DNA from: Magallana gigas
Lineage: Eukaryota
Length of the DNA stretch: 64,000 nucleotides
Assembly (NCBI RefSeq): GCF_963853765.1
Contig: NC_088862.1
Coordinates: 26,846,001 to 26,910,000 of the forward strand
Direction: 5' to 3'
Below the pieces are notes generated by a model. That model was not told the origin of the DNA. It saw only the letters and a program-made list of their open reading frames with translations, and did no database searches. The number at the start of each line of letters is the position of its first letter. Within the stretch, counting starts at the first letter, position 1. Shown one piece after another: positions 14,948-37,021 of the stretch. A program made the translations under genes and the position numbers.

Positions 14948-17413
14948 CTTGCATCACGATTTGCTCACAAATTTAAGTTCCTTTTTCATTAATTATGTTT
15001 TTCTGAATATTTTCCTGCATATCCATTTTATACCTCTATGAAGCCTAAAGGTTATTTTGAGAAAGAAAGAAATTTTGCGTGAAGCAAGTTTTTTTTTTTA
15101 CCATAAATTTCGCAAAAAAATGTAATCAACTTTCATTAAAATCAGAATTATAACTCCTTAGGTGTCAGGCATTTTGGTTTATGTAAGAAAACATTTTATT
15201 TTAAGCTACACTTGCTTCAATGTAAAGTACATAAAATGCCGCTCATCTATGATCTAAGAATATTGGTAAACCAACAAAGTACTTCATCCAGCTTTAGACT
15301 TGATAAATTTCAAAAAAATTGTATCTATTTGTTCTATGTTTTCTCTCTCTCTCTCTCTCTCTATCATTTGTATATTATGCATGTTTTAATGTTAATCACA
15401 ACTGATCATTAATAAAGATTCGATTCACCATAATCCATTAAGACATCTGCAGCCCTATTGAAGCATTTGATTTTAACACGCGTGCTAATTGTCACTTATT
15501 AATATATATCTAAGATAACTCCTGTATACCCACTTTGATTTATAAAGTAGCAAAGTTACGTTTACTTATCGTGTCGTTTGCCTTTTTGGAACGTGCGTCG
15601 GGTTTAAAATATGTTCAAACCATTTTAAAAAACCCCGCTCAAACTAAAAGTCAGAAAGCCTGATCCTTACTCTAAAAACACACGAAGTCATGTTTCAGAA
15701 AATGTTCTATGCAGAGGCAGACTACAAATAATTGAATATTTACACTCCATCATTTGGTAAACAGCGGACAATTATTGACTTACCTTCGCTAACTTTAAAT
15801 GAAGCATTAAAATAGATTCATAGAGAGATAAACATAAATATCAGTATGCGTTCTGTTGTGGTTTATGCATGCTTGAAAGTAGCAAGTATCACAACAGAAT
15901 TACATTACCTTCTTTAATTAGGATATGATTGGGGTCAATAAATAGACCATAAGAGTGAAATTTATTATTCCCTAACGGACCAAAAAGAAATTAAGAGCAA
16001 AATTGCATTGTATTTAAGTCACTTGCGCAAACATGCTCTAAAAAGCAGAACAATATATTTGCATGCATAAAGATTTTAATTTTACTCTCTCGCCGATTTA
16101 GTAAAAAAATCATTTTACGTATAATTAGGTGATTAAAAACGTTTGAGGTTATCAAATCCAATAAAGCCAAAAGGTGTTTATAATAGACATGATCCGGCCT
16201 GACCATATTTGATAATTTCATTGTATCTAAAGAATGATTTGTTAATACTTATATAATTTTCAGAAATTGTACTTCAAATTACAAAATGGATTGATTTTGT
16301 AGTGTTATGACAGACAAAAAAAAATGCTCATGTAAATATTCATCTTTCATATTTGTTGTTTCTTTGTTGTTAAGATACGTATTTATTAATTAATGCAAAA
16401 TATATAAAGGTTAGCAGTAAAATGAAAACTTCTAGAATTAATTGATTTTGACGGCACCACTGGCAGACTACCGGTATTTTGTGTAGGATTTGAATGGGAG
16501 TAAAAATTTTTGATTTCCAATTTGATTTTGCAGAAATTAAGAAAGAAAAAAAGCTTGCATGCTGGCCAAAAGAAACACATGATCCTTAACAGGTTAGTCA
16601 TTCTAATAATTCGGATTTGAATAAAACATTATGATTGTTTTACATAGATATAATTGAATTTTCGAGGTTTGTTCTTATTTTAATTAAAATCACAATTTCA
16701 ACATGTGCGGCCAAATTACCAATACAAAAACAATAAAGAAAATGTGTATAAGTGTAATTTATGGAAAGGTTTACTTATGAGGTTATAGAAATTATTTCTG
16801 TACAGGGGACTACCTTTACAAAAACGTTAAAATGTTTCAGCGACAATGCCAGTGATATTAATGTTCATTCAGTGGGGAGTTTATTTGGTAGATAAATAAA
16901 TGAAAAAAGTAATATAACAATAATATGTGTCAAGTAAATCATCTTTATACTTTTTATATTCTTTGTTTTGTTTTGTTTTTTTGTAGGCAGTTCTTGAGTG
17001 TATGGTAATGAATTCGAACTCCTCAACCGAACAGATACAGTTGCAAGATGACTAAAAACACCTCGGTGATAACACTTGTCATTTGATATACCGTAGTACA
17101 ATTGATGTTGCAAAAATATTTTTTTGTGCTCGTGCATGACTAATTACTTTGCAGGTCAGAAAACAACTTCAGGACCAGAAAAGATCCGTTTTTTTATTCC
17201 TTGATTTTAAAAGTTTTGGCAAATTGCATTTTTGTGAATTATGTAAACAATTTTATTGTCTCTCTTAAACAGTAACTGTACCTCCTTGTGTGTTTGTGTA
17301 GTTGCGCTATTGCCGGCTTTTAATTTGAAATAAAATGTATATTTAGACAGTTATTATTATGTAGACAGAATTAGATTCATTGTCACAAACAAGGGTTTGG
17401 AATCTACCAGATT

Positions 17414-18979
17414 CTAATTCAGAAAATGTGATAGAGCTCGTTGGTAATCGATTATGAACACAAAGGAAAAAATTCTGAACACGATTTTTAACCAACGGAT
17501 ACAAGTTTTGTTCAACGACTCGACATTATCTGTGTTATTTTTGTTCTTTTTAAAATCAAAATTCCGATAGGTAATCATTCTTTTGTATATGATGAAAACA
17601 TAAGACATTAAAATATTTTAAAGACCCTTTGAATTTGATACTTTAGATCTCTTTATTATCAATAGCTTATTCGTACCTATTCGTAGAATACTTTCATGTT
17701 ACAACATTATTCAAGTGTTTAGATTGGAAAATAAAATAAGAGTGTCTTCGCTTTGTGAGAGATCTTTGTTTAAAATTGAAACAAGAAAACATCTTTCTTG
17801 GTGACAAAAGACATGCATTCGGTGGACATAAATATTGTATATAATAATAAATATTTGATTGAACATAACTGACGTACGCAATATATCTTATTCTCTACGT
17901 TTTCTCTCTCCTTCTCATATCCTTTGTCATAAGAAGGTTATACATGTATGAAAGTATCATTCAGCTGTAAACACACCTCCTTAATTGATTTCATTCTTTC
18001 CCAGCGCAATCACTGTCAGAATCATAAAAAGTGATAATTTTTTTCATCGTATACATGTATCACTGTTTATATTTTCCTAAAAAAATATTTTGACTCAACG
18101 CCTCAGTGCGAGATAAAAAGAAAGATAACTCGAGAACATATATATGCATTTTTTTAATCCTTGGATATCAAGGGCATAGAAAGAATGAAAAGATAAATCA
18201 AATTTAATGAGATGCCAAGAAGTATTTTCATATACAATTCTTGGAAATTTTAAAATGTTTTACATATGTTATTAAAAAAAAACATTATTACTGTAACAAA
18301 TATTTTAAATTTAATACAATAGTTAGATAAGGTATACTAAATGATTGAAAACCTCAAATAATGTCATTCATAAATAAACAAAAAATAAACAAATTGTATC
18401 ATCATACCAAAAACCCTCATCGGCACAAACCACGGCTTTGAGTCTTCCATCTTTTAATTCAGAAAATGTGATGTCAAAGTAAATCGCTCGTTGGTAATCG
18501 ACAATAAACACAAATGAAAAATTCTGAACACGATCGTAAGTTTTGTTTCAACGACTCATCATTAACTCTATTAATTTTTTCTCTTTTTAAAATCAAAATT
18601 TTGATAAGAGTGTTTCTTTGATATGTGATGAACATGCCATATTAATTTTATTATTCTTGAAATTTCTATTAAACATAAGACATTAAAAAATTTTCAAGAC
18701 TCTTTTTATCAAATGCCCAATTTTGAAGATCGCTGAGTAATCAATAGATTCTTTGTACCTCGTCGTAATGTAATTTCACGAGAAAGCATTTTTCAAGTGT
18801 TTGGAAGAGAAAACAAAATTAAAGTCTCTTCACTCTGTGTGCGATCTTTGTTTAAAAGAATTCGTTGTAGAATTGAAACACTCAAGCAAAAAAAAATTTC
18901 TCTTGATGACATAAGACATGCATTAGATGGACATAACTATTCCAAACAAATGCAGGTGATTGAACAAAGCTGACGTCAG

Positions 18980-19069
<90 letters not shown>

Positions 19070-19372
19070 CTTTCCGCACATGATTTGCAATATGAAGATT
19101 TTGGCAAACGGAATATGAAAGTAGCATTAAGCTGTGAAAACACCACCTTGATTAATGACACTCTTTTTAGCGCAATATTTGTTAGAACAGTGATTTATTT
19201 CTGCAGAATTATAGTGAAAACATAACGTATATCAATGTATGAAGAATTCCTAAAAACAATATTTGAACACGTGCCACGGCGCGAGATAAAAGGAAAGATA
19301 ACTCGAGCTGTTGCATATTTTTTTAATCATTGAATATCAAAGGCATAGGAGAAATAAAAGTATCATTTAAAG

Positions 19373-19375
<3 letters not shown>
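17414..19375. repeat. Two diverged tandem copies of a ~1-kb AT-rich repeat with (CT)n tracts (also present in unit 2)
   Basis: taattcagaaaatgtgat...ctcgttggtaatcga at 17414 and ~18455; gcgagataaaa-gaaagataactcgag at ~18110 and ~19280. Confidence 0.7.
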
Positions 19376-19465
<90 letters not shown>

Positions 19466-19606
19466 GATAGAGTCATTGCAAAAGAGTCAATACCGCCACA
19501 ATAAATCGCCAACCATTTGATATTTGTAATAAAGTATTGATATTCATAAATATTAATACTATATTTATATTTATATATCATATTACTAAATGTTCTTACA
19601 CTTAAT

Positions 19607-19656
<50 letters not shown>
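18983..19656. repeat. Cluster of (CT)n/(TA)n microsatellites
   Basis: Tracts at ~18983-19069, 19381-19460 and 19608-19656. Confidence 0.95.
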
Positions 19657-19660
<4 letters not shown>

Positions 19661-20085
19661 AGTGATGTTTATCATCTATTAATGCTTCTTTAATGGCGAC
19701 AACATTGTCTGACAATGTTCACTATGAAATACTTTTTTATCGAGCGCCAACAAAAACTTTCCAAACAGCCATGATATCCTAGCCAACGTTCTCCTTTTAG
19801 TAAAGTAATCCAGATTCTATTATCAAGTGTGCTGCAATTGAACAGAAAATAAATTCAAGCTTTGTAGAAGCATTTTTTTTGGAAAGGGCGTAAATTGTTT
19901 CTGTAAAGAATGACTAAATTTCAGTTTAGCTCGCTTTTTTTGTTTAAGGTATTTATCATCAAATTCGAAGAATTTGCTAGATTATTATTTTTTCTTGTAA
20001 CAAAATAAAAAAATCAAGGATTTATATCAATATGAATTATTGTATACCTAAAACTCGTTGAGGAAGAATCTGAAGTTTTTCATTC

Positions 20086-20821
20086 TGTAAGCCTTCTGTC
20101 TTACAGGATCCTATTGAGGGTCAGCTCAAGCTTATGGATGACAAGTCCAGGATTTCTTTCTCAAGCGGTTTTATTAAGCGTGATCGTATAGTTACAATAA
20201 CATCAGCTAATAGCAGCCCAAATCAGGAGTCTGCACAATCTTATTTCATATGGGTATATATAAGGTTTTACTTATGATGGACAGTTTTGACTAGTTCGGC
20301 CCATATACGACGATCATGAGTGAACATTTAGTGTTCAAAATTAAGATTAATATTTTATTCCTAAATAAAGTAACAAAACCGTCAAAACTGCCAATCAAAG
20401 AGTCTGGATGCAGGATGTGGGTCTCCGAGTCCTGGGTCTCGGAGCCCCCCCACCTAGTATGAGGCATCACTTACTCACAATACGTTCATTCATACACGGC
20501 ATAAAAGGTTACAAAGGTTAATATATAGAATACACAATACATGACTCAATATAGAATACTAGAGCATTCGTTGCAGACACAGAATCGCCAAATAGGTCAC
20601 ATGTTGTTAAACTCTCAATTTGGATATTATTCTGCCCGTATTATGACCTGGTTTCATAACATCATTTAGGAATACTACGCATTGCTACAAGAGTCACAGA
20701 GTTCATTCTGTCAATTATCATTAACACCATTCAGTGCGCAGCATCTAGGTACACATAAATATCATAGTGACCATTATGTAATACTAGCAATTCAAGGTCA
20801 TAGCATGGCTATCTGTTTACA
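20086..20821 (-). repeat. 3' LTR (736 bp)
   Basis: TGTAAAC...GCTTACA on the minus strand; matches 31211-31946 except about 2 substitutions seen by eye. Confidence 0.97.
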
Positions 20822-20832
20822 TACGTCCCCCA
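20822..20832 (-). promoter_or_regulatory. Putative polypurine tract
   Basis: Minus strand TTTGGGGGACGTA directly before the 3' LTR TGT; the purine run is short. Confidence 0.6.
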
Positions 20833-21455
20833 AACAAAAGAAATATCCCGAAGGGAGATTTCTCATGCCTGGCGCCCGGAATAGGAAAGCGTCCTTGATC
20901 TACACTTGATCAGACGAACTTCCTAGTGACATACCAGTCAGAACATCTATGTTAAGAGATAGTAACAAGTGACATGTTTCCACCTCCGGCTTGGAACACC
21001 ATTCATCTATAAAAACAAATCTATACCCAGGATGTATACATGTTCATAAAATCATATAGCTTGATTATATCGCATTACAATCATGAAAACAATAATGAAT
21101 AAAGTATGATAATAATGACCAAGATGAAATAACCATAGTTGAATATAATCGTAATTCATCATCAAAGTAATACTAAGTATGATTAAGCTTGATGTCACAT
21201 ATATATAAAAAGTCACTGCATGCTTATAAGTTCACAAAAATATCTCTTCCTTCCTAGGGGCGAGGTTCGCGTCATAAGTTCGGAGTCCATCGGTTTCTTC
21301 CTGAATTTCTCCAGAGTGAATCAACAAATACAAGATTTACATTAGCACAAGATAACGCACATTTCTACTTTACACATTTCACATTTTTTTAACTTTCGCT
21401 AAATTTCACAATCCTTTCATAAGGAATACACAACTTCTTCGCGGCTGTAGCTCAA

Positions 21456-23700
21456 TTATTCATCCATCATCGGCACCCGTGGATAGAGGGTCGGCGCGGA
21501 TGGCGAGGCGACTTCTCGCGGAGCGTCTCCTGCGTTCCTCTGTTGCGTAGACATCGCGGCCTTCTCTTCCAGGTATTTACGTGCCAGCTCTGGGTCCGGT
21601 CGATAGTATTTGGTCCATGGATAGTCTTCATTTTCCTCCTCACCACGAAATTGTTGTGCTAGTTTAGTCGAAATGGTCCCCGCGTTACTGGCCAATTTGT
21701 GAGTTCCGATTCCTCCGCTTCGTCGGGGTTTCTCTTGGATCCTAGTGACTTTCGGGATTGGTTCAAGTTCAATAATGTCGCTAGAGGTCCTTTTCTCTGG
21801 ATTCTCACAACAAAATACAGTGTCTTTGGAAGAACCTTTCTTATCTCCGTCACTACCCCTTTTTCGACAACCTGTCCAGCAACCACTACAGCATATACCA
21901 TCCCACTTTTTAATAGTTTTACGTTTCTTAATACAAAGTCCTATCGTTATTGTTACTGCCAAAGTTAAACACACATAAAACCAGGGGCTTCCCACCCAAG
22001 ACGAGGATTTCATGGGTTGCAAATTAATTACTGGCAATTCCGCCATTAGTGCATTCATAGGGAAAATTTTAATATCTTTTAATTTGTCAGGAATTTTTAT
22101 TTGGCTAATTTCGGGGTGTCGGGTGTTTAGAGGGTCCCAAAGGGTGCAGGTATCGATCTCATTGATAAATTTTTGGAAAGAATTGGTCATGTTGAACTGA
22201 CTTTCTCTATTATAAAATGGTGGTAATAATAATGAACCGTGAAAACCCGAGCAACCTTGTCCCAAACTCAGAATGTCTATCGGGCTCTTAACCTTTGTAC
22301 TTTGTGTATTTTGTCCACATTTTACATTTATTTCTAATGGCTTTGAAGAAGTGATTAACCACTTTCCTTCACGCAAGTTGACCGCATTTGGATCAAGTAA
22401 CTTATTTTCTACTAATACTGAACAATGTTTTTCTATTTCTGGCAGGTTATTTATAAATATTTTTACTATATATGCATAAATCGCTCGAGCTTACGGGGTA
22501 AAAGGGTTTATTTATAGAACAAAAGTTCCCGTGTTGTCTTTTACATGCGTTGGTTTCTATTTTAGATAAGGTAGTGTATGTTCCCCGAACATCATCTATA
22601 GCGATTGCTTCAGTTTCGATATCATATCTAGCCAACAGATTTGATTGATTCGTTTTTAAATTCGGCACCGGGAGGTTATGGACCTTGAATAACTCAAATC
22701 GTTTGTTTGTATCTAACAGGGGTATAGTCATTGCAATTATGAGATTTTCCTCCCCAATTAATGTCGTACATGGTAAAATCCTATAATAAGACCAAAGGTC
22801 GGTGGTTATATCATAAGGTAATTTAAGATACGAGGGTAACTGATCTGAGATTTCTAACAACAGGCGCCTGAGATCTCCTGGGGGGATAACGGTTGGAGAG
22901 AGATGTCCTAAAGAAAGCATATTGAGACGTAAACGAAGTTGTTGTAAATGATTTCTAGTTACTGAGACGATTTCGGATAAACTACTTAATGTCCTGTCGA
23001 AACGTATGTAAATGTCATTAAATCTTTGCATGTCATGCAATTCTCTGCCCAGTGTTGATTGTTCTGTCATTGATTCCTTAAGACTAGTAATAATTTCATT
23101 TATTGTCCTGCGGTTGTCCATTATATTTTGCTGATTATCTTTAACAAAAGTCATACTTTCGGTTAATACATGTTTTATTTGCTGTTGATTATTGGCAAGC
23201 TGCCTAACATTGCTTCTAATACTGTTTAAATCTTCTTCGTCTAATGTACCGAAAAGAAAAGATAGGACTTTCCCTACAATTGGTATTACAGCTCTAGTAT
23301 TTCTACGGTGCATAAAACGAATTTCTTGTACCTCTTGTTCCAAATATCTTCTGTTTACCTTAAAATTGTTTATCTCAACTGAAAACCTTTCGCTCATTTG
23401 ATAAAGCCGAAAGATGGGTGTCATGCGAATAGTTTGATTAGTATCAGTGACTGATAGTTTCTTTGATTCATCCCCAATGGCTTGAACTAAAGTATTTTTG
23501 ACAGTTACTAATTCCGTTTGTAACAAATTAAGAATGGTATAATAAGGATTTAAGCTTATTGTCGTGATTGCTGTCCATTTTCCTTGCACCAGAGAAATAT
23601 CCTTAACTTTTTCAAAAATTACATTTTTCCTGACGATATTGTTTGCGAAAGGTATCCCAAACATTCCAGCTAGGAGGAATACTGTCAAGACCCACTTCAT
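21456..23700 (-). CDS. env: Envelope class I fusion protein (baculovirus F/errantivirus Env type), ~746 aa if repaired; frameshift at 22467-22473
   Basis: Signal peptide MKWVLTVFLLAGMFG; furin site RRNTR followed by AVIPIVGKVLSFLFGTLDEED, fitting the F-protein fusion-peptide pattern; heptad region; Cys-rich region; TM PWFYVCLTLAVTITIGLCI; 157-aa tail. Frame 1 stops after 417 aa; frame 2 is open from 22469 to 21456. Confidence 0.9.
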
Positions 23701-23707
23701 CCTGCAA

Positions 23708-24343
23708 TTAATAATTGAAACTTCTAATACAAGGGTGTTTGCAGAAAGTTCTTTCAAATTGGTACATCCAGCCAATTACATTCCTTCTCGTTTCTGACAT
23801 TTCTATCATTTTTGAATGAGTTTCTACTAAATCAAGTGGAAAGTGTTTTTTCATAAATTTGATGAAAGAGGGGTATAGCAGCAGCGTTTCATTATTTCCT
23901 ATCACTATGGCTTGTAGGGTTACTATTCTTTGAAATTCTGAATTTATCTTAAGCCTAGTAGGGCGATTTTGTTCCGCGATTCTCTGATAATTCATTATTT
24001 GAGCCTTAACCAATTCGGGTAAATCACGGATCAATTCACAGATTTTACTTAATGGTATATCTTCATCGTCAGATGTCATTGGGACTAATGCCTGAGGAAT
24101 TTCTACCTTAGGATGTGAAACTCTTGGAAGTTTTACAAATTTATTTCTTTCGAAGCCAGGTTGTAAGGAGCCCAAATTATAATGTAATTGTTGTGAGTTA
24201 GTATTTGTTCCCTGCTTCGGCATTTCTAGCTTCATTGACCATTCACGTTTTGGATCGGGTCTAAGTCTTGATTTGTCTGAAAATTTCTTCCCCGATTGTG
24301 AAAATGATGTAAGTGAGCGGGGCGACGGTCGTGGATCGGACAT
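23708..24343 (-). CDS. Accessory ORF D (211 aa): Pro/basic disordered N-terminus, SDDEDIPL motif, paralogous LPxxhxxxIMxYxR domain
   Basis: Intact ORF; acceptor TTCTTTTCAG|ATG; aligns to ORFs B and C without gaps over 33 aa. Confidence 0.8.
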   Translation of the reverse strand: MSDPRPSPRSLTSFSQSGKKFSDKSRLRPDPKREWSMKLEMPKQGTNTNSQQLHYNLGSLQPGFERNKFVKLPRVSHPKVEIPQALVPMTSDDEDIPLSKICELIRDLPELVKAQIMNYQRIAEQNRPTRLKINSEFQRIVTLQAIVIGNNETLLLYPSFIKFMKKHFPLDLVETHSKMIEMSETRRNVIGWMYQFERTFCKHPCIRSFNY

Positions 24344-24377
24344 CTGAAAAGAACGTTCGATATATTAAGACCTTGGA

Positions 24378-24812
24378 TTAACCCAACCTAAAAGGTTTAC
24401 CATTTATGTCAAGAAGTACTAATTCGTTTTCGATTGGATTGAAATCCATTATCACCCCATTTTCACCTACTCTAAACGAGTTTGGGACGACCTCGTTTGC
24501 TAGGATGAATTGTAAATACCTAGTCTCTTCGTGACCAATGGTATCAAAAAGATGATAAATTTCATCGAATTTTTTCTTAATTTTCAATAACCTGTTTATG
24601 TTCGTTATGAAAGTTGGACTAAATTTTCTAAAAAATGCATCAGCATATTCATCCATTCTCTTTAACTCTAACAAAACTGTTCTCTTTGGTTCGATTTCCG
24701 CGTTTGCCAAGCGATGGTATGTCATGATTTTATCCAAGATTAATGGGGGCAAATCTGGATAAATATCTTCTCCAGTGAATAATTCCCTGGGAGTTTTCTG
24801 ACTTTCGGCCAT
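24378..24812 (-). CDS. Accessory ORF C (144 aa), paralogue of B and D
   Basis: Intact ORF; acceptor TTCATTTATTTTACAG|AAATG; IYPDLPPLILDKIMTYHRLANAE. Confidence 0.85.
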   Translation of the reverse strand: MAESQKTPRELFTGEDIYPDLPPLILDKIMTYHRLANAEIEPKRTVLLELKRMDEYADAFFRKFSPTFITNINRLLKIKKKFDEIYHLFDTIGHEETRYLQFILANEVVPNSFRVGENGVIMDFNPIENELVLLDINGKPFRLG

Positions 24813-24872
24813 TTCTGTAAAATAAATGAATTATTACCTTATTTAGTACATAAGTTTAATAAGGCTCCCCAT

Positions 24873-25331
24873 TTAATGTGGTTCATTAAGATCTCTGAAC
24901 TGCATATTCAACCCGGCTGCGTCATTTTGAATACTCCCCATATCAACTAGATCTAGGACCATTGCCGACAGATACTCTAATTCTTCAGGTCCTAAGCGTT
25001 CACAATCCCTTAGAATTCTCATCATCAATTTTAGGTTTCGAATAAAGCTAGGTCTCAGTGTTTCCGGACTTAACCTCCTATTTAGGTACTTAGAATATAC
25101 GTTAAATCGCCTTAACTCTACATTGACATATTTCTTTGGGGTCAATTCCGCGTTTGCTATACGATGATACTTCATAATTTGATCGATAACAGGATAAGGT
25201 AGCTGGTCAGGGTAAATGTTCCCAGGGGTATATAATGAGTTGATCCTCATTGCTCTTTCCTCAAGGTTGTCAATGCTTTCCATTTCCTCTTCCTCTCTCC
25301 CTGATGGATGTTCCGATCTTGCACTTGCCAT
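24873..25331 (-). CDS. Accessory ORF B (152 aa from MASARS), paralogue of C and D
   Basis: Intact ORF; acceptor CATTTCTTGCAG|AAAATG; IYPDQLPYPVIDQIMKYHRIANAE. Confidence 0.85.
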   Translation of the reverse strand: MASARSEHPSGREEEEMESIDNLEERAMRINSLYTPGNIYPDQLPYPVIDQIMKYHRIANAELTPKKYVNVELRRFNVYSKYLNRRLSPETLRPSFIRNLKLMMRILRDCERLGPEELEYLSAMVLDLVDMGSIQNDAAGLNMQFRDLNEPH

Positions 25332-25476
25332 TTTCTGCAAGAAATGCAAGACATCAGGAACATCCACCCATGAACAAGAGAAAAGCTAAATTGCTATATC
25401 CCTATTTTTTTTTTTCTTTAATTATTAATAAGCATGATATATGTACAAAGCAAAGCTCATTCGAGATTATTTACAT

Positions 25477-25695
25477 CTACATTCGGTTTCGAGTGACCCC
25501 CTCCCTCCTAACGCTCGCGGAGGTGATTTCTCCTCTAATGATTAGCATAACCATATCAGAGTATGGCTCTGTATCACTCAAATAATGGCTGTATATGTTC
25601 AAGGTTGCTGTCAATGTGACTCCTCCAAACTTTATTTTGATATAAAGTTCACTAGGGGGCGTCAATCTCAGTTCCAATAACTCAGATTCTGACAT
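25477..25695 (-). CDS. Accessory ORF A (72 aa), unknown function
   Basis: Intact ORF starting 22 nt after the pol stop; acceptor CCTTTATTTTCAG|ATG. Confidence 0.7.
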   Translation of the reverse strand: MSESELLELRLTPPSELYIKIKFGGVTLTATLNIYSHYLSDTEPYSDMVMLIIRGEITSASVRREGVTRNRM

Positions 25696-25717
25696 CTGAA
25701 AATAAAGGATACTTTAT

Positions 25718-28700
25718 CTACCCTATTACTAACTGTTTTAAGACAACTAAACAATCCTCTTTAAATTTTTGTTTATTAGATTTACGGGGTTTAGGGATTG
25801 GTTTGAAGCCTAGACCTACTTTAGGGGCTATTTCATCTATTTCCATATTTTCTTCTAAGGGTACATTTGGGTTATCTAAGGGTATTTCATAGGCTTGACC
25901 ACTATTTTCACCACATTGATTTGACTCATGGGTCTCATCCGATTCTGAATCTACGGTCTGATCATTCTCGTGTTTATACTGCTGATCATCCATGATCGTC
26001 TTAGCTCTTATACGTCTTTGAAGTTCTGCTAGGGGAATATCCTCTTCGTCTGAAGATCCTTCTCTTTCCCATTGTTTGGACTGTATAGCTCTTTCCAATG
26101 GTTCTGGTTGCATGTCTTCATTTTCTGACGACGATTCATCTTCCGGTGGCACCACATAGTTAGTTTTTCTTAGAGTTCTTCCACCATCTTCAGTAGTTTG
26201 TGAAAGGGGCCAGTGCGAAATATCTGCCAATCTTAATTGTCGCGCATGGCATTTGGTGGTTAATCCAGTCAATTGATCTCTCACCACGAAACTAACTGGT
26301 CCTTTCTGCTCTATGATTCGATAATACGGTAGCCACTTTTTATCTAACTTATTTTGTCTTCTGTTGTTCTTAAGGTAGACAGGGTCACCTACCTGAAAAT
26401 TTTCATCTTTGCTTCTCTTATCGGCCTGAGCTTTCTGTTTCTTCTTGGCTTCCTTCATATTACGATGTACTAGCAGGAAAGCTTTATGCTGTTCTTGAAG
26501 GGCAATCTTGTGTTGATCTTCTCCCGCATATCTCCTTCGAGGTTTCATTAACGTATCAAGAGGTAATACGACATCTCTGTTGTACATAAGGTAATATGGG
26601 GAAAACTTTGACGAATCGTTAGGATGGAAACGAATGGCTGCCAACGTCTGATTAAGATGAATATCCCATGTTTGAGCGTTGTCTGTTGTTTTCTTAGCCA
26701 TCACGTCATGTAGAGTTCTATGAAATCGTTCTACTTTACCATTACCTTGAGGGCTGTAATAAGATGTTTTGATATGGTTGATATTCAATTCTTTTAAAGT
26801 TTCTTCCACTTTCTTATTCACATTTTCTGTTCCGTTGTCTGTGAGGATTTGAAGAGGACAGCCATATCTTGGATATATTTCTTCTAAGATAAGATGTACT
26901 ATGTTGTCAGCTGACTTATCAGGGACGGGAAAAGCTTCTGGCCAACCAGAGTAAATGTCTATAAAAGAAACTATGTACTTGTTTCCCGACAAGGATGTTG
27001 GATATGGTCCTGATAGATCAAGTCCTACTTTAGCCATTGGAAAAGGTGGTATATCTGTCTCTTGAAGTGGAGGTTGATTTTTCTTATTGCTCCTCGTTTG
27101 GCATACTACACATCCTTCTATATAAGAGTATAACCTTTTGTACAAATTTGGTATGTAGTACTTTTGTCTGATTACGTCATATGTTTTGTCCACTCCCATA
27201 TGTCCAAGTCCGTCATGATACTGCTGCACTACTAAAAGTTCTAACTCACGTGGTACATACAGGCGAAGTTTTGGGCCTTCTGAGTCTCCATCTGAAAGAT
27301 AGTACATTAAACCATCAATTTCCAGAAACTTCTTTTCTTCGGTTGCCGTTGCTGTTCCTTTATTTAACCGATTCTTCAGTTTCTTGATCTGCTCGTCGTG
27401 TTGTTGACTTTCTTTGATGTTGATATCCTCTGGTAGATCAATAAAGGGTTTGACCAATTCGTCGTTTTGTTTAACTTCACATCTGGCTAATCTCTTAGGC
27501 GAAAAGGCATTGGAGTTAAGTACGTTCACTTCAAAGAAATTGTCCTTAACATCTGGTTCATCATGCTCTGATTGTTCTTCCTCTTCACACTCGAGGTTGA
27601 CTGTCGGTAATCGGGATAAGAGATCTGCACAGCAGTTAAATCTTCCTTCTATGTACTCTACCTTACAGTTATATCCTGCAATACTTAATGCCCATAGTTG
27701 AATTTTCTTATTTTGCATTGGAGAGTCTAAGATATACTTGAGCGGCTTATGGTCTGTTCTTATAGTAAACTGAGCACCGTGTAAATAATGGTCTAACTTC
27801 TGAAGGGCGTAATGGATTGCAAATGCCTCCTTTTCTATGGTTGACCACTTTTCTTGAGTTTTACTCAGCTTGTGGGATAAGTAATATATTGGCTTATCTT
27901 CTCCCTCATCTGTCTTTTGAGTAAGGCACGCTCCAATACATTTGTCGCTGGCATCGGTGTACAGGATGTAAGGCTTATTAGTATCTGGATATGCTAGTAA
28001 AGGCACTACCGTTAAACTTTCTTTAATAAAGTCAAACGCTTTTTGGCAACATGGCGTCCATTTGAACCTTGCATATTTTCTGGTTAAGTCAATCAATGGT
28101 TCCGCAATCTTAGAGAAATTCGGTATAAATCTCCTGTAATAACTACACATACCTATAAAGCCACGAACTTCTCGGACTGTAGTGGGCGCTGGTAACTTTC
28201 TTATAGCTTCGACTTTCTTTGAATCAGGTGTAACGCCATGTTCATCAATGATGAAACCAAGATATTCTGTCTGTTCCTTGAAGAAACTACATTTCTTTAG
28301 CTTCATTTTAAGTCCATGCTTCCTTAGGCGGTTGAAAACGTCTTGAATATGCCGAAGATGATCTTCCGGTGTCTCTGAGAATATAAGAATGTCATCCAGG
28401 TATGCGATGGCAAACTCCTCTTGTCCTTGAAGAACTATGTTCATCAGCTCTTGAAAGACTGCCGGTGCATTACTCAACCCAAATGGCATCCGGTTGAATT
28501 GGAATAGTCCTTTGTGACATGCAAAGGCCGTTTTTTCTTTACTTGAATCTTCTAATTTCACTTGCCAATATCCACTCTTTAAGTCTAGTGCAGTGAAATA
28601 TTTTGCCTTACCTAGTAAACATAGGATATCATCAATCAACGGTAGCGGGAATGATACGGGTTTCACTATCTTATTCAAGCTTCTAAAGTCAACGCACATC

Positions 28701-29779
28701 CGGTCTGATCCGTCCTTTTTCTTCACCACTACTAAGGGAAATGACCAAGGCGATTGTGATCTCTCAATAATCTTTGCGTCCATCATTTCTAGTATGGCCT
28801 TGTCAATTATCTGTCTTTTATTTAAGGGTACACGGTAGGGTCTGTTCTTTATTGGGTGGTGATCTCCAGTTTCTATCTTCATTTTAACAGTATCAGTCAC
28901 TCCAAGGTCACTGTCTTTCTTTGCAAATAAATCATTGTTTTTGCTCACAAGTCTTTTGATTGAGAGTTCAAATCTTTTAGGTACATCAATTTCTTCTTTT
29001 GTGTCTTGAGTAGTCTGTATTTCTGAGATTTCCTTCTGTTTTAATGCGGTAATTCGTCCTACTATGTAGCCTCTTGGAATTTTATAATTTTTGTTAGTTT
29101 GGTTAACGAAGATCATTGGAACTTTCTTATCCTTCCGAACTATACAAACGGCGTCTTTTAAATATAGTCCTGGGTCTTCCATAATGCAGTTATTGTCTAT
29201 GCTGTTCACTTCAACCAAGTCATTTTTTTCCAGAGGAAAATTGTTATTTATTTTTCCATAGAATACAGTCACCGTGTTTGGTCTCATAATAAGTTTCTTA
29301 GGAGTTCTTACAATAGTTGAGATGTGTAAATCTTCTTTAAGTTCCGCGTATACTTTGCCATCAATACGCATGAGTCCAAGATCAAAGTATAAACGAACAT
29401 TGTTTTTCTTGAGCCAATCACGACCGAGAATCATGTTTCGGTTGAGTCCCTTTGTCACATAAAGTCTGTGGTCTAAAGTTAACCCTGAAATCTTAAAGGA
29501 AATATTTACATACCCTATCGCAATTAAAGAATTGCCATTTGCTGCTTGTAAAGAGGGGATGTCATTATTAAACAACTTGGGGCGGGGAAATAGATTATCA
29601 TACATTTTCTTACTAATTAGAGATACGGCTGCGCCTGTATCTACCAAAGCTCTAAATTTATTTTTACCTACTTTTAATAAACAGCTACTGGGGTTGTTAG
29701 TAAAATTAATTTCATATGTAGGTCTTTGTTTAAAGTTCTTTCTTCGGGCTTCAACGAAGGAAGAACGTCTTAGTTTTCC
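25718..29779 (-). CDS. pol: Pol polyprotein (aspartic protease, RT, RNase H, integrase), expressed by -1 frameshift from gag
   Basis: LVDTGA; VDFRSLN; AYLDDILIFS; LYTDAS; integrase HHCC (HDGLGH...CVVC) and D,D(35)E (GLD, TDNG, VERF); FQVGDPVYL; long acidic tail. The frame is open upstream of the listed ORF start as far as the gag end. Confidence 0.97.
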   Translation of the reverse strand, partial: GKLRRSSFVEARRKNFKQRPTYEINFTNNPSSCLLKVGKNKFRALVDTGAAVSLISKKMYDNLFPRPKLFNNDIPSLQAANGNSLIAIGYVNISFKISGLTLDHRLYVTKGLNRNMILGRDWLKKNNVRLYFDLGLMRIDGKVYAELKEDLHISTIVRTPKKLIMRPNTVTVFYGKINNNFPLEKNDLVEVNSIDNNCIMEDPGLYLKDAVCIVRKDKKVPMIFVNQTNKNYKIPRGYIVGRITALKQKEISEIQTTQDTKEEIDVPKRFELSIKRLVSKNNDLFAKKDSDLGVTDTVKMKIETGDHHPIKNRPYRVPLNKRQIIDKAILEMMDAKIIERSQSPWSFPLVVVKKKDGSDRMCVDFRSLNKIVKPVSFPLPLIDDILCLLGKAKYFTALDLKSGYWQVKLEDSSKEKTAFACHKGLFQFNRMPFGLSNAPAVFQELMNIVLQGQEEFAIAYLDDILIFSETPEDHLRHIQDVFNRLRKHGLKMKLKKCSFFKEQTEYLGFIIDEHGVTPDSKKVEAIRKLPAPTTVREVRGFIGMCSYYRRFIPNFSKIAEPLIDLTRKYARFKWTPCCQKAFDFIKESLTVVPLLAYPDTNKPYILYTDASDKCIGACLTQKTDEGEDKPIYYLSHKLSKTQEKWSTIEKEAFAIHYALQKLDHYLHGAQFTIRTDHKPLKYILDSPMQNKKIQLWALSIAGYNCKVEYIEGRFNCCADLLSRLPTVNLECEEEEQSEHDEPDVKDNFFEVNVLNSNAFSPKRLARCEVKQNDELVKPFIDLPEDINIKESQQHDEQIKKLKNRLNKGTATATEEKKFLEIDGLMYYLSDGDSEGPKLRLYVPRELELLVVQQYHDGLGHMGVDKTYDVIRQKYYIPNLYKRLYSYIEGCVVCQTRSNKKNQPPLQETDIPPFPMAKVGLDLSGPYPTSLSGNKYIVSFIDIYSGWPEAFPVPDKSADNIVHLILEEIYPRYGCPLQILTDNGTENVNKKVEETLKELNINHIKTSYYSPQGNGKVERFHRTLHDVMAKKTTDNAQTWDIHLNQTLAAIRFHPNDSSKFSPYYLMYNRDVVLPLDTLMKPRRRYAGEDQHKIALQEQHKAFLLVHRNMKEAKKKQKAQADKRSKDENFQVGDPVYLKNNRRQNKLDKKWLPYYRIIEQKGPVSFVVRDQLTGLTTKCHARQLRLADISHWPLSQTTEDGGRTLRKTNYVVPPEDESSSENEDMQPEPLERAIQSKQWEREGSSDEEDIPLAELQRRIRAKTIMDDQQYKHENDQTVDSESDETHESNQCGENSGQAYEIPLDNPNVPLEENMEIDEIAPKVGLGFKPIPKPRKSNKQKFKEDCLVVLKQLVIG
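29735..29779 (-). promoter_or_regulatory. -1 ribosomal frameshift signal (G GAA AAC, 6-nt spacer, 11-bp stem-loop)
   Basis: G_GAA_AAC_TAA at 29779-29770; stem GTTCTT-C-CTTCG / CGAAG-A-AAGAAC (29766-29735) with an 8-nt loop. Confidence 0.75.
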
Positions 29780-31089
29780 TGTTTTTGTTTGTCAAAATAA
29801 GAGCGCGATTTGAAATTTTGAGACGATCCCCTATTTACTTGGTCGCTAGATTTATATGTTCGGCCTTGACGATTTGATGGTCTGCCCCGATTTTGCTGCG
29901 TTCTTTGATACATATGCGAGCCCCAACAATCTGCACGCACATGACCTACTTTACCACAATTCCAACATTCCACAGGCGAACGGGGTTTCTGCTCTATATT
30001 ATGGACGGGTTTGTTTTGACTTGGTCGTTTATCTATTTGAGGACGGGACCTGACTTGGGATTTATTTTGAGTACAAAATCGAGCCCTATGACCCGTCTGT
30101 TTACATTTAAAACACCTACTATTACGCGCATGGTCAATTTCCATTGGTTCTACATGCCTTGTCTCTACTGAGGTAAGATTATCTGCTCTATCCTTTAATA
30201 AGGGAAGAGTAGTATCAAAATTTGAAAGAGTTCGTCTGTTGTCATTACTTTGTACAATTTCTGTCATATTTGACCCTCTTATCGCTAGCCTCTGTCTCAG
30301 ATTTTGTTCTCGCATTGCTATTTGAATTGCGGATTCTAAATCTTTAGGGTTTTCTCGCAAAATTTTCATTCTGAGGTAGTCGAATGTCAACCCGTCACAA
30401 AAGATATCTACTAACTGTTGTTGTATCAAAGGGTCTTTTAGTCTGTCATTACTGTAGGCGTCTTCCGCGATTTGCAATAGTCTCTCGGCGAACAACTGAA
30501 CACTTTCATTTGAATGTTGTCGAGTCTTACGCATTACTGCTAACGCGTGTTGGGGGTCTGTTATTTCTGCAAATCTATTTTTAAGGGATTCCTTAAGATC
30601 GTTCCAAGATGGGATTTCTTCAGACGCATCTGTTTCATCTAAATACCTTTTAATATAATCCCCAACTGAACCCTTACTCGTTATGTATGCAAGCATGGGG
30701 ATCTCATGACCTTGTTTCCCAGACATAACACTGTACTTTTCAACTTCCTTTATCCACTGTTTAAATTTTTGAGCATCTCCCTCAAAAGGAGTTATCACAG
30801 AAGATAGGGGCACTGAGAGTGCAGCTGTTATAGCTTTAACTTGACCAATAAAAAAATCTTTTTCATCATCCTGATCTGGGACTCGGTGTCGAGTTTCACG
30901 AGTTTCATACGGCCTAGCATCATGATATGTTTCAAAAGTATTTTGTTTAATCTGCTCTTTTTCTGGGGATTTTTGACCTGTTTCTTGCCCTTTATTTTCT
31001 TTGTTCTGACCCAACCCCGCGAATTGTTTTTCTAATTGCTCCATTTGATTTTTAAATTCTTTTTTATCAAACCCATCACCTGTCGCCAT
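29770..31089 (-). CDS. gag: Gag polyprotein (439 aa) with capsid-like core and two CCHC zinc knuckles
   Basis: CFKCKQTGHRARFC and CWNCGKVGHVRADC; AATATGG start context; lies between the PBS and pol. Confidence 0.95.
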   Translation of the reverse strand: MATGDGFDKKEFKNQMEQLEKQFAGLGQNKENKGQETGQKSPEKEQIKQNTFETYHDARPYETRETRHRVPDQDDEKDFFIGQVKAITAALSVPLSSVITPFEGDAQKFKQWIKEVEKYSVMSGKQGHEIPMLAYITSKGSVGDYIKRYLDETDASEEIPSWNDLKESLKNRFAEITDPQHALAVMRKTRQHSNESVQLFAERLLQIAEDAYSNDRLKDPLIQQQLVDIFCDGLTFDYLRMKILRENPKDLESAIQIAMREQNLRQRLAIRGSNMTEIVQSNDNRRTLSNFDTTLPLLKDRADNLTSVETRHVEPMEIDHARNSRCFKCKQTGHRARFCTQNKSQVRSRPQIDKRPSQNKPVHNIEQKPRSPVECWNCGKVGHVRADCWGSHMYQRTQQNRGRPSNRQGRTYKSSDQVNRGSSQNFKSRSYFDKQKQEN

Positions 31090-31150
31090 ATTGGTTGCTT
31101 AGACAAAGTTGTTTACTTCGAGATAGCTATAAGAGACATATAGAAATGGT

Positions 31151-31159
31151 TCTTACCTT
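31151..31159 (-). promoter_or_regulatory. Leader splice donor AAG|GTAAGA (exon ends at 31157)
   Basis: Near-consensus 5' splice site between the PBS and the gag ATG, where retroviral major donors lie. Confidence 0.75.
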
Positions 31160-31182
31160 ACTCTGTATTGAACTTCGCTCAG

Positions 31183-31200
31183 TCCTGGTCACTGGCACCA
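31183..31200 (-). promoter_or_regulatory. Primer-binding site, probably tRNA-His(GUG)
   Basis: TGGTGCC(A)GTGACCAGGA is complementary to a recalled invertebrate tRNA-His 3' end (TCCTGGTCACGGCACCA) with one bulged nt; it starts 10 nt after the 5' LTR. Confidence 0.65.
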
Positions 31201-31210
31201 AGAAAGTTCA

Positions 31211-31946
31211 TGTAAGCCTTCTGTCTTACAGGATCCTATTGAGGGTCAGCTCAAGCTTATGGATGACAAGTCCAGGATTTCTTTCTCAAGCGGTTTTATT
31301 AAGCGTGATCGTATAGTTACAATAACATCAGCTAATAGCAGCCCAAATCAGGAGTCTGCACAATCTCATTTCATATGGGTATATATAAGGTTTTACTTAT
31401 GATGGACAGTTTTGACTAGTTCGGCCCATATACGACGATCATGAGTGAACATTTAGTGTTCAAAATTAAGATTAATATTTTATTCCTAAATAAAGTAACA
31501 AAACCGTCAAAACTGCCAATCAAAGAGTCTGGATGCAGGATGTGGGTCTCCGAGTCCTGGGTCTCGGAGCCCCCCCACCTAGTATGAGGCATCACTTACT
31601 CACAATACGTTCATTCATACACGGCATAAAAGGTTACAAAGGTTAATATATAGAATACACAATACATGACTCAATATAGAATACTAGAGCATTCGTTGCA
31701 GACACAGAATCGCCAAATAGGTCACATGTTGTTAAAATCTCAATTTGGATATTATTCTGCCCGTATTATGACCTGGTTTCATAACATCATTTAGGAATAC
31801 TACGCATTGCTACAAGAGTCACAGAGTTCATTCTGTCAATTATCATTAACACCATTCAGTGCGCAGCATCTAGGTACACATAAATATCATAGTGACCATT
31901 ATGTAATACTAGCAATTCAAGGTCATAGCATGGCTATCTGTTTACA
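31211..31946 (-). repeat. 5' LTR (736 bp)
   Basis: Partner of 20086-20821; candidate TATA-like (31379-31388 or ~31645-31652) and AATAAA (31295-31300, 31479-31484) signals on the minus strand. Confidence 0.97.
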
Positions 31947-32465
31947 ATTCCTTATGCAAAGTTTGGCTTAAAATGTTTATTTTTTAATCTCAACTCCCCA
32001 TTTTATACTTTAAAATAAAAATTAATGATTAAGATTAAGAACCGTTTTTAAAAGAGTTTGGATTTTTGGTGGGATGTAACTATCTTCTTTGTTTATCAAA
32101 TATTGACATCTTTTCTTCGCATTCGCTAGGAGAAGCTAATTTATTTCATAGACTTCAAAATCGGAAAGTTATTTGCCAAGATTTGCTCTGTTGTGTGAAA
32201 TTTGACGCTGTTTTAACGAAATGTACATTTTTGAATGAAGTAAGAGGAGAGTCAATGAGTTCAGTGTACTCTTTTTCGTTAGCCAATTATATGACACCTA
32301 ACCTAGAGTAGGCCACGCTTTCATCCCATCGGATTTTATCACGTACCGCCCAAAATCCAAGCTCTTGTAAAAACATCGGTGTATTTGATTTGTTTCTCAA
32401 GTTCTTTGTAAAACCATGTTTTAAAAGCAGGGCAAATCTTCATAGAACAAAAAAATCCCTTTGTG

Positions 32466-33401
32466 TCAACATATTTCACATAGGGTAGAAAACCCTTTAG
32501 GTAGATATTTTTTCACACGCAAGTAAACAACTTCAGAAAACAACAGATAAATGATGGGGTTAACAGAAAATTTTAACATCCAAGCCATCCGAGCAATCAA
32601 CAACAAACTCCTGCACTCGTATTCTGAGCAACAAACACCAAAATAAATCAAACAGAAACACAGCGGATAGAGGGCCGCCGACATCGTGAAGACTGTCAAG
32701 ATGACCGTCAACATTCTTGACAACACTATCATCTGGGTTTTTGCACGCATAATACTCTTTGATCCTCCACTAGCCCGGAGTTGACAGGGCAATACATCTG
32801 TCTTCAGTGACGTAATTTTTTTAACATGGAAATAAATGATGAAGCAAATTGGAAGAAACAGTAAGTATCCCCGAAACAACAGAACGGTGGGTAGAACGTC
32901 CATATCTATGTGGAAGCGAAGAATGTAGTACACAATTGTAAAACACACACTCAATATCCAAAGCATCCCTGAAATCTTTAATAACTTTCTCTTTGAGAGG
33001 GTTTTGTACTGAAGAGGTTTTACAACACAATAGTACCGAAGGCCAACAAGAAATACCACATGGGCCGCCGATGCATGAGTAGTTCCAAAAGTTGCTGACA
33101 TGAAGAATTTTTCAAATGTACGGATATCTGTTTTTAATTCAAACAATAAAACAACAAGGAAAGTGATGCCATATAAACTAACAGTCACCAAGTCACTCAT
33201 GATTAGCGCAGCGATGGCAAAATAAGTCTGTGTGTGTAAACGTTTGTACGAAACAATTTTAGCGAATGCAACGGTATGACCAGCAATTCCACATACTGTC
33301 AAGACAGGAATTATTACTCTCATGAACGAAGATTCCACCTCAATGTGCACAGGAATCGTGAGGGAAAGATAGCCTTGAATTTGAGAACAATTTCGATCCA
33401 T
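32466..33401 (-). CDS. Class A (rhodopsin-like) 7TM receptor, copy 1 (311 aa, intronless CDS)
   Basis: Seven hydrophobic segments; LxxxD in TM2, LRY at the DRY position, TM4 Trp, TM5 Pro, NPIIY in TM7. Confidence 0.88.
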   Translation of the reverse strand: MDRNCSQIQGYLSLTIPVHIEVESSFMRVIIPVLTVCGIAGHTVAFAKIVSYKRLHTQTYFAIAALIMSDLVTVSLYGITFLVVLLFELKTDIRTFEKFFMSATFGTTHASAAHVVFLVGLRYYCVVKPLQYKTLSKRKLLKISGMLWILSVCFTIVYYILRFHIDMDVLPTVLLFRGYLLFLPICFIIYFHVKKITSLKTDVLPCQLRASGGSKSIMRAKTQMIVLSRMLTVILTVFTMSAALYPLCFCLIYFGVCCSEYECRSLLLIARMAWMLKFSVNPIIYLLFSEVVYLRVKKYLPKGFSTLCEIC

Positions 33402-34782: not shown

Positions 34783-36826
34783 TAAACAATAACTGTACCT
34801 CCTTGTGTGTTTGTGAAGTTGCTTTATTGCCGGCTTTTAACTTGAAATAAAATGTATATTTAGACAGTATTATTATGTAGACAGAATTAGATTCATTGTC
34901 ACAAACCAGGGTTTGGAATCTACCAGCTTCTAATTCAGAAAATGTGATAGCGCTGCTTGGTAATCGACGATGAACACAAAGGAAAAATTCTGAACACGAT
35001 TTTTAACCAACGGATACAAGTTTTGTTTCAACGACTCCACATTCTCTGTGTTATTTTTGCTCTTTTCAAAATCAAAATTCCGATAGGTAATCATTCTTTT
35101 GTATATGATGAGAACATAAGACATTAAAATATTCTAAAGACCCTTTGAATTTGATACTTTAGATCGCTTTATTATCAATAGCTTCTTCGTACCTATTCGT
35201 AGAATCATTTCATGTTATAACATTATTCAAGTGTTTAGATGGGAAAATAAAATAAGAGTGTCTTCGCTTTGTGAGAGATCTTTGTTTAAAATTGAAACAA
35301 GAAACATCTTTCTTGGTGACAAAAGACATGCATTCGGTGGACATAAATATTGTATATAATAATAAATATTTGATTGAACATAATTGACGTACGCAATCTA
35401 TCTTATTCTCTACGTTTTCTCTCTCCTTCTCATATCCTTTGTCATAAGAAGGTTATACATGTATGAAAGTATCATTCAGCAGTAAACACACCTCCTTAAT
35501 TGATTTCATTATTTCCTAGCGTAATCACTGTCAGAATCATAAAAATTGATAATTTTTTTCATCGTATACATGTATCACTGTTTATATTTTCCTAAAAAAA
35601 TATTTTGACTCAACGCCTCATTGCGAGATAAAAAGAAAGAAAACTCGAGAACATATATATGCATTTTTTTTAATCCTTGGATATCAAGGGCATAGGAAGA
35701 ATGAAAATACAAATCAAATTTAATGAGATGCCAAGAAGTATTTTCATATCAAACAATTCTTGGAAATTTTAAAATGTTTTAAACATTTGATTAGAAAAAC
35801 ATCATTACTGTAACAAATATTTTAAATTTGAGACAATAGTTAGATAAGGTATACTAAATGATTGAAAACCTCAAATAATGTCATTCATACGTAAACAAAA
35901 AATAAACAAATTGTATCATCATACCAAAAAAACCTCATCGGCACAAACCACGGCTTTGAGTCTTCCATCTTTTAATTCAGAAAATGTGATGTCAAAGTAA
36001 ATCGCTCGTTGGTAATCAACAATAAACACAAATGAAAAATTCTGAACACGATCGTAAGTTTTGTTTCAAAGACTCATCATTAACTTTATTAATTTTTTCT
36101 CTTTTTAAAATCAAAATTTTGATAAGAGTCTTTCTTTGATATGTGATGAACATGCTATATTAATTTTATTATTCTTGAAATTACTATTAAACATAAGACA
36201 TTAAAACATTTTCAAGACTCTTTTTATCAAATGCCCAATTTTGAAGATCGCTGAGTAATCAATAGATTTTTTGTACCTCGTCGTAATGTAATTTCACGAG
36301 AAAGCATTTTTCAAGTGTTTGGAAGAGAAAACAAAATTAAAGTCTCTTCACTCTGTGTGCGATCTTTGTTTAAAAGAATTCGTTGTAGAATTGAAACACT
36401 CAAGCAAAAAAATATTTCTCTTGATGACATAAGACATGCATTTGCTGGACATAACTATTCCAAACAAATGCGGGTGATTGAACAAAGCTGACGGTAGTAA
36501 TCTGTTTCTCTCTATTTTTTCTCTCTCTCCATCTCTCTATCTCTCTTTCCGCACATGAATTGCAAAATGAAGATTTTGGCAAACATACACTTTTTAAGCG
36601 CAATATTTGTTAGAATAGTGATTTATTTCTGCAGAATTATAGTGAAGACATAACGTATATCAATGTATGAAGAATTCCTAAAAACAATATTTTAACACGT
36701 GCCACGGCGCGAGATAAAAGGAAAGATAACTCGAGCTCTTGCATATTTTTTTTAATCATTGAATATCAAAGGCATAGGAGAAATAAAAGTATCATTTAAA
36801 GCAAATATTTCTCTCTCTCTCTCTCG

Positions 36827-36887
<61 letters not shown>

Positions 36888-37021
36888 AGTATGCAAAAGA
36901 GTCAATACCGCCACAATTAATCGCCAAACAAGAAGTAAACTATTTCTATCAAATATTCGATATTTGTAATATAGTATTGATATTTATAAAAACCAATATT
37001 TAAAGTTCTGAAACGTAATGT

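Follow-up and report, generated by a model that had tools for sequence, protein, structure and literature searches.

How does a retrotransposon with five open reading frames (ORFs) downstream of pol make a separate protein from each of them? The question is raised by a 64,000-nucleotide stretch of the Magallana gigas genome (RefSeq assembly GCF_963853765.1, contig NC_088862.1, positions 26,846,001 to 26,910,000; hereafter the window), which holds a complete long terminal repeat (LTR) element of 11.9 kb, an env-bearing member of Ty3/gypsy running from window position 31946 to 20086. All its features lie on the minus strand. An earlier note on this DNA had placed one splice donor upstream of gag and five acceptors at the start codons of four small ORFs (A to D) and env, and reading of the sequence located all six sites at those coordinates. 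The putative donor, AAG|GTAAGA (31151..31159, cut at 31157|31156), lies 67 nt 5' of the gag ATG. The putative acceptors precede ORF A (25696..25707; 0 nt before the ATG), ORF B (25335..25346; exon start 25334, 3 nt before the ATG at 25331), ORF C (24815..24826; exon start 24814, 2 nt before the ATG at 24812), ORF D (24344..24355; 0 nt before the ATG at 24343) and env (23702..23713; exon start 23701, 1 nt before the ATG at 23700), the last overlapping the stop of D. The most probable answer, in which we place considerable confidence, is that a non-coding leader is spliced to these alternative acceptors, giving one singly spliced mRNA per gene.

In this scheme transcription would start in the 5' LTR, the unspliced RNA would serve both as genome and as gag-pol message, and the pre-gag donor would be joined once, to one of the five acceptors, keeping a leader of about 200 nt and removing 5.5-7.5 kb. 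We infer use of the sites by the spliceosome in cis, with the pre-gag donor and one protein per RNA. The presumed leader exon (31157..31357, its 5' end set from the TATA box) contains two short upstream ORFs (uORFs; 31328 and 31211), both of which terminate upstream of the donor in the window copy. Because the leader holds nothing but such short closed uORFs there, each ATG must be the first long-frame start, and after joining the ATG of A, B, C, D or env would take that place. A purine at position -3 after joining, as the note had stated for A and D, was correct by reading. Copies, among them L039, L040 and L050, differ by one extra base where the primer-binding site begins (31200-31210), and this shifts the frame of a short leader uORF. 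Each cassette would thus be a self-contained series of pyrimidine tract, YAG, 0-7 nt, ATG and ORF, drawing neither frame nor peptide from the leader, and such independence would make for easy duplication (B, C and D), loss, and exchange for other ORFs (X, Y and Z of related families, described below). An element with a strong donor must presumably also export its unspliced RNA; copies without any of A to D exist, so none of these would be required in cis for that export.

The claim that five YAG acceptors at five start codons are unlikely by chance held up against other ATGs. A YAG 0-3 nt upstream was found at 42 of 278 (15%) other sense-strand ATGs of the element; when at least 7 pyrimidines in 12 and no second AG were also required, 15 of the 278 passed, as did 1 of 73 control ORF starts (from the window outside the element, both strands, and from the antisense strand of the element). 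The naive joint probability of the five placements ranged from 8e-5 (YAG only) to 5e-7, values that rest on crude scoring and on a pyrimidine threshold fixed afterwards, at the weakest of the five sites. As evidence the five cases were all present but not independent: B, C and D are paralogues, so that three independent events rather than five should be counted and about 2e-4 is the fairer figure. By pyrimidine count, acceptors A, B and C ranked first to third among 293 YAG sites between 31100 and 22400. The donor tied for best among 564 GT sites by a crude consensus score, the tied site (26392) lying inside pol. This site was rejected as a second donor, being explained by a protein motif and drifting among sister copies, most of which read CAA|GTAGGA, AAG|GTAGGC or AAG|GTTGGA in step with that motif; there was no sign of a second conserved donor.

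Conservation was followed in the whole genome (564 Mb in 29 contigs), where 40 of 115 candidate copies were scored. Close copies are uninformative by descent and can only be consistent with function; the diverged sisters are informative. In the 30 best of 40 copies listed for the donor, the donor GT was present in all 30 and GTAAG in 27, and acceptor A was intact in all 20 loci that showed the start region (from a set of 21, one being an internal piece only), one of them having GTG for ATG. A GTAAG donor stood 43-104 nt past the start of the primer-binding site in all eight loci with a detected primer-binding motif, among which L063, L065, L133, L134 and L136 differ in leader sequence. The diverged sisters carry A-B-C-D-env (L061/L062), C-D-env without A and B (L063/L064) or, in the decayed L146, C-D-env, and a YAG was found 0-4 nt before all 11 gene starts in L062, L064 and L146. 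Synonymous divergence (dS) to these sisters ranged from 0.5 to above 3, near saturation. Donor and acceptors were thus kept, with variation staying within the splice consensus (CAG exchanged for TAG at the env acceptor), while the AG-ATG spacing itself, which the note had suggested checking, varied, with shifts at B, C and D (spacers of 0, 1, 2, 3 or 4 nt). In six of seven homologous comparisons the last 12 nt before the exon were better kept than the rest of the spacer (for example, 11/12 versus 60/130, and 8/12 versus 8/46).

The same signal accompanies other cargo in related families, the integrase cores of which are 66-71% identical to that of the window element. These families carry ORF X (243 aa) and env (L132, L133 and L136), ORF Y (178 aa) and env (L134), ORF Z (179 aa), a D-like ORF and env (L135), or env alone (L137), and a pyrimidine-YAG was found 0-7 nt before the starts of X, Y, Z, the D-like ORF and env. 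In a tree of 23 rows, built from elements of this genome with L134, L135 and L065 left out (short or missing core) and a wrong 'farenv' label on three close copies, the families with a usable integrase core formed one clade with the window element (100/100) against distant env families. The latter served as an internal control: among 12 loci, a clear site before env was present only in L149, and a weak one in L139. The layout belongs to a clade. In two public oyster gene models (P0047 and P0061) an upstream exon is joined exactly to the X and Y acceptors; these may be ab initio models, and their support for splicing is weak. Two RefSeq proteins begin at the ATG of ORF X. For two oysters, RefSeq/UniRef lists ORF X itself (8488-9219 in L136 on contig C3, where the acceptors are at 8485 and 9295; also in L132 and L133) as an uncharacterized protein of the host.

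That the small ORFs are real genes, as the note had supposed, is borne out by purifying selection on all four in comparison with diverged sisters (Fisher p from 6e-5 to 2e-26). The ratio of non-synonymous to synonymous divergence (dN/dS) was 0.24 for A (25477..25695; 72 aa), 0.10-0.15 for C (24378..24812; 144 aa) and 0.05-0.23 for D (23708..24343; 211 aa), and for B (24873..25331; 152 aa) the proportions of changed non-synonymous and synonymous sites (pN and pS) were 0.28 and 0.77, respectively. ORF A was full-length and open in 16 of 21 genome matches. For D, 17 database homologues were found, of which nine share the start and extend over the full length; the distant ones are about 30-38% identical, and full-length homologues reach down to 33-64% identity. 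Identity between B and C is 35%, and each of them aligns with the C-terminal half of D (profile probability 96%, E 3.5e-9); B-C-D is thus a triplicated tandem series, with one acceptor to every copy. The env gene (21456..23700) is of F type (Pfam Baculo_F, E 4e-13). In the window its frame is broken near 22.45 kb, the first frame ending at 22447 (codon 417) and the rest lying in another frame; an intact env of 746 codons is present in three near-identical copies on other chromosomes. In all three close sisters examined, env is hydrophobic at its N-terminus and carries a furin-like site at 133 as well as a hydrophobic, possibly transmembrane, stretch at 571, and since the hydrophobic leader begins at residue 4, the ATG after the acceptor is the natural start.

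Several results weigh against the splicing scheme. Four RNA-labelled or probable DNA runs (X1, X10, X21 and X15) from four studies were mapped to 20822-31946, out of 24 listed (20 runs, in nine studies, carried matching sequence), and none of the four had a junction at 31157 or at any acceptor. The predicted junctions from 31157 to the five acceptors were therefore not recovered; the data are uninformative for B to env. Seven joints listed across the runs were deletions, a turn-round of the LTR, or lacked GT-AG ends. X1 and X10 are RNA runs kept as contigs, a form that drops rare RNA forms; they gave unbroken, flat contigs over the acceptors and over B to env, with gag-pol 5-10 times deeper, and their resemblance to the probable DNA run X15 means that they may hold the stretch as DNA. 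X21 consists of raw poly(A) reads, of which about one in 100 was sampled, 1282 of them mapping to the element. It had about 10-fold depth over the leader-gag bin, yet no leader joint, and covered gag-pol and the LTR with zero depth over 23048-25273, so env-bearing copies are not visibly expressed there. In this sample the family is apparently transcribed from env-less copies, and the result counts mildly against frequent splicing to acceptor A.

Spliced RNAs, which would keep the primer-binding site, the polypurine tract and R, might give rise to retro-copies. Two exact-match patterns, searched in this one genome, revealed no copy in which a downstream exon follows the leader directly, the five matches being three by chance and two point-mutated donors, and no retro-copied form was found in metagenome contigs with one exact pattern (two chance matches). 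Other adverse points concern the sites themselves. By pyrimidine count acceptor D (29th of 293) and the env acceptor (outside the top 30) are weak, and branch points were not enriched, YTRAY at a usable distance being present only at B and D against a background of 82/366. The C-D comparison in L146 is the exception to the better keeping of exon-adjacent positions (8/12 near the exon versus 16/22 in the rest of the spacer), the env YAG is lost in the decayed L005, and C lacks a pyrimidine tract in the rearranged L147. Part of the conservation may also have other causes, because D ends within the env acceptor and acceptor A is found 11-22 nt past the pol stop.

Four other explanations were weighed against this evidence. 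An unlikely one is that one or two subgenomic RNAs are made and that the downstream ORFs are read by termination-reinitiation or leaky scanning, the AG having arisen incidentally in U-rich spacers or having been left over from duplication. It would be in keeping with the short gaps between the ORFs (7-142 nt), the weak D and env acceptors, the common ancestry of B, C and D, and the reading of the sORFs (short ORFs) of the MDG1 group from unspliced RNA (PMC11952523); yet YAG and pyrimidine tract are kept while the length and sequence of the spacers drift, the same signal precedes unrelated ORFs of related families, and the unspliced -3 base of A and D is C, a poor start context.

It is quite unlikely that the 3' genes are transcribed from internal promoters, within pol or beyond it, and that a nearby donor supplies the acceptors, the arrangement of env in Tor3b/4b. 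Such promoters are known for env of Oikopleura Tor elements (PMC4402516), the leader junction was not seen, and 26392 offers a second good donor match; this match, however, drifts in most sisters, tracking the protein motif, whereas conservation of the pre-gag donor extends over the clade, and no other partner for it is evident.

Trans-splicing of a host spliced-leader RNA to the five sites is considered very unlikely. In nematode and tunicate operons trans-splice acceptors adjoin the ATG, and acceptors flush with start codons in a tandem array fit that pattern. The conserved cis donor argues against it, as does the lack of any Rfam family match in the element, and in a 2013 review molluscs stand among the phyla with only putative, unproven leaders (PMC3795323). 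A chance pattern, or a non-coding spacer with spurious ORFs, is highly improbable: a YAG within 3 nt of an ATG is common in the element, the RNA runs gave no junction and A to D lack a Pfam family or known fold, but purifying selection on all four ORFs largely refutes it, and the full-length D homologues and the conservation of the sites stand against it too.

Among the 40 scored copies, five close copies carry A to env, about a dozen have A only, and about twenty lack A as well, so that env-less derivatives outnumber env-bearing copies among those scored. Both reduced types (for example, L007-L017 and L023-L030) retain env remnants and the same 3' end, the type without accessory genes having a different pol end; the deletion breakpoints of the env-less copies did not fall on splice sites. 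Since copies lack B to env or A to env, none of A to D is needed in cis, and B to D travel with env. As such copies are the majority of those found, the most likely role of the small proteins is in cell-to-cell passage of the enveloped form or in the evasion of host defence, and not in intracellular copying, supply in trans being possible.

Two conserved octamers, TGTA(A/C/T)ATA, follow ORF A at a distance of 28 nt from each other (25440..25475). The pair (27-28 nt apart) was found after pol or A in all three copy types, in at least 20 close copies and in L062, L064 and L146, and was absent from the X, Y and Z families. It resembles a Pumilio/Nanos response element. Under the splicing scheme it would remain in the gag-pol and A RNAs and be removed from those of B, C, D and env. 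ATTAAA hexamers were noted on the minus strand at 25422 (after the spacer motif of ORF A) and at 24877 and 24860 (end of ORF B), and could serve early polyadenylation of subgenomic RNAs.

What the accessory proteins do was approached through their sequences and predicted structures. A to D had no match among Pfam families, a sequence search of solved structures gave nothing significant (best E 0.11), a search of the ESM Atlas with ORF C gave no usable match, and no D relative was present in viral contigs. AlphaFold models reached a predicted local distance difference test (pLDDT) of 67 for C and 58 for D, and no known fold was recovered by Foldseek (D) or VIA-align (C and D; best Z 4.4 and 4.2); D has a helical C-terminal half and, at low confidence, a basic proline-rich N-terminal half. 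A profile search of 1.84 billion representative sequences gave 33 matches, and the 16 examined were B/C/D-like except for one spurious long protein. B, C and D share the motif LPxxIxxxIMxY, which resembles the first helix of an F-box, and gave no Pfam F-box match. A profile of 30 host F-boxes aligned only its positions 1-15 of 46 to the motif, at 3-5 bits (8 bits for X), and shuffled sequences reached the profile score 0, 0 and 4 times in 200 for B, C and D, respectively, the motif having first been picked by eye. The N-terminus of ORF X is the most F-box-like among the accessory ORFs, and X matched F-box clusters in the ESM Atlas at 0.85-0.86, below the 0.9 mark, which makes it a lead only. 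A predicted complex of Skp1 with D residues 90-170 scored 0.02, with the fold of the partner uncertain, and counts for neither side. An F-box-like nature of B, C and D is accordingly no more than a tentative lead.

Multi-copy F-box/leucine-rich repeat (LRR) ORFs were considered as cargo of the clade and rejected, as none of three loci had a gag, pol or env match. This dispersed ORF of about 240 aa occurs in L219 (6483-9418; C3:40.22 Mb), L220, L221 and about ten more places; in L219 it is followed by a 741-aa ORF without a Pfam match, and the locus is not an LTR element by tblastn. The F-box/LRR ORF is probably cargo of another transposon.

The remaining parts of the element are those of a complete, recent insertion. 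The 5' LTR (31211..31946) and 3' LTR (20086..20821) are each 736 nt long, begin with TG and end with CA; they differ at two positions and, with a 4-nt target-site duplication on either side (31947..31950 and 20082-20085), mark the insertion as young. A TATA-like box (31387) and AATAAA (31300) both lie within the 5' LTR. The primer-binding site (31183..31200), which we take to be tRNA-His-like, is located 10 nt past the LTR end. The gag gene (29770..31089; 439 aa) matched Retrotrans_gag and zf-CCHC in Pfam, with Ty3_capsid below the cut-off, and pol (25718..29770) encodes reverse transcriptase, RNase H and integrase, in the Pfam order of Ty3/gypsy (RVT_1, RT_RNaseH, Integrase_H2C2, rve); the DTG motif of the protease is read in frame, 5' of the first pol ATG (29605). 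By its domain content the element is a Ty3/gypsy element with an F-type env.

At least 75 genome matches to the window env were found, in many families and with long open frames, and, judged by these, F-type env retrotransposons form a large and recently active set in this genome. At C1:69259971-69280817, three env matches spaced by exactly 9996 nt represent either tandemly repeated elements of a distant env family or an error of assembly. Around the element, the window contains an intronless ORF for a rhodopsin-family G-protein-coupled receptor (7tm_1; 32466-33401, minus strand), with two more copies at about 38037 and 44961 that are 87-97% alike and, judged by this likeness, form a tandem receptor cluster. 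A local duplication (17352-19878 and 34868-37293, about 17.5 kb apart, 94-99% alike) brackets the element, and three tandem 155-nt units, 99% alike, lie at 52903-53367.

Parts of this organization are known from other elements. Metazoan Ty3/gypsy errantiviruses with F-type env have been catalogued, including those of Crassostrea ariakensis and Magallana hongkongensis (Chary and Hayashi, PMC13524379). As described there, they share with the window element gag-pol-env between LTRs, an F-type env and multiple copies; unlike them, the window element has four extra ORFs in a 2.0-kb gap between pol and env, a comparison of description and not of sequence. Neither 'splic' nor 'accessory' was found by string search in the main text of that report, which used a prefilter of 1000 nt between pol and env and a later manual extension of 3000 nt. 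In Drosophila iERVs (insect endogenous retroviruses; gypsy, ZAM, springer and idefix), env is translated from a subgenomic RNA that is spliced from a donor close to where gag begins, and the upstream exon supplies the start as a short peptide exon, an AU dinucleotide or part of gag (PMC12992720). In that description env is the one spliced gene; here there are five acceptors, the five ATGs follow the acceptors, and in the window copy no leader ATG is open to the donor. A spliced env is also described for Tor3a (PMC4402516). Cer1 of C. elegans has a spliced non-env protein, CERV, with which it exports its unspliced RNA, as such elements must (PMC10309623); CERV is one 517-aa protein of five exons sharing the gag frame, in an element without env, in contrast to four ORFs plus env here. 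The sORF1 and sORF2 of the MDG1 group are likewise selected extra ORFs in Ty3/gypsy, but are reported upstream of gag, on unspliced RNA and without env (PMC11952523), and the bdelloid elements have one extra ORF3 under selection that replaces env instead of forming a series beside it (PMC5408684).

In layout there is also a likeness outside Ty3/gypsy. Complex retroviruses (lentiviruses and spumaviruses) splice from a major donor placed ahead of gag to a series of acceptors beyond pol, which serve accessory genes and env, and human immunodeficiency virus (HIV) also uses multiply spliced RNAs. The 'HIV-type' acceptor use of the earlier note is only partly right. The likeness is in the series of acceptors, here predicted from sequence signals, and there are differences: the element belongs to Ty3/gypsy, its accessory genes do not overlap, one donor is conserved, singly spliced RNAs are predicted, and env is of Baculo_F type and not a retroviral SU/TM (surface/transmembrane) protein. 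No part like Rev and its response element (RRE) or like Tat was identified, and family and fold searches matched A to D to no known protein. The element is, in gene layout, complex-retrovirus-like, but by its env type it is not a complex retrovirus. No account was found of a Ty3/gypsy element in which several accessory genes lie between pol and env, each with an acceptor to itself, in a full-text search with most subscription papers and Repbase outside its reach. Spliced env, single extra ORFs and oyster elements with F-type env are already known; several accessory genes on separate acceptors would be new.

A wider reading, which we regard as rather doubtful as a whole, is that a clade of enveloped mollusc retrotransposons independently reached the organization of complex retroviruses by means of a non-coding leader and plug-in cassettes, with B, C, D and X as F-box-like adaptors that direct host restriction or silencing factors to degradation, and with the Pumilio-like pair subjecting the gag-pol and A RNAs, and no others, to translational control in the germline. 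In the literature found, no more than env or one or two extra ORFs are described for Ty3/gypsy elements, and the splicing scheme, if true, would mean that 'complex retrovirus' gene expression arose a second time, independently. It would provide a simple mechanism for the turnover of accessory genes, one genome showing A-B-C-D, C-D, A only, X, Y, Z-D or none. Surveys that limit the gap between pol and env would tend to miss such elements, and gene callers and repeat annotators would treat their ORFs as host orphan genes, as the two RefSeq 'uncharacterized' proteins that are ORF X illustrate. It would also make testable which host defences enveloped retrotransposons must counter outside insects.

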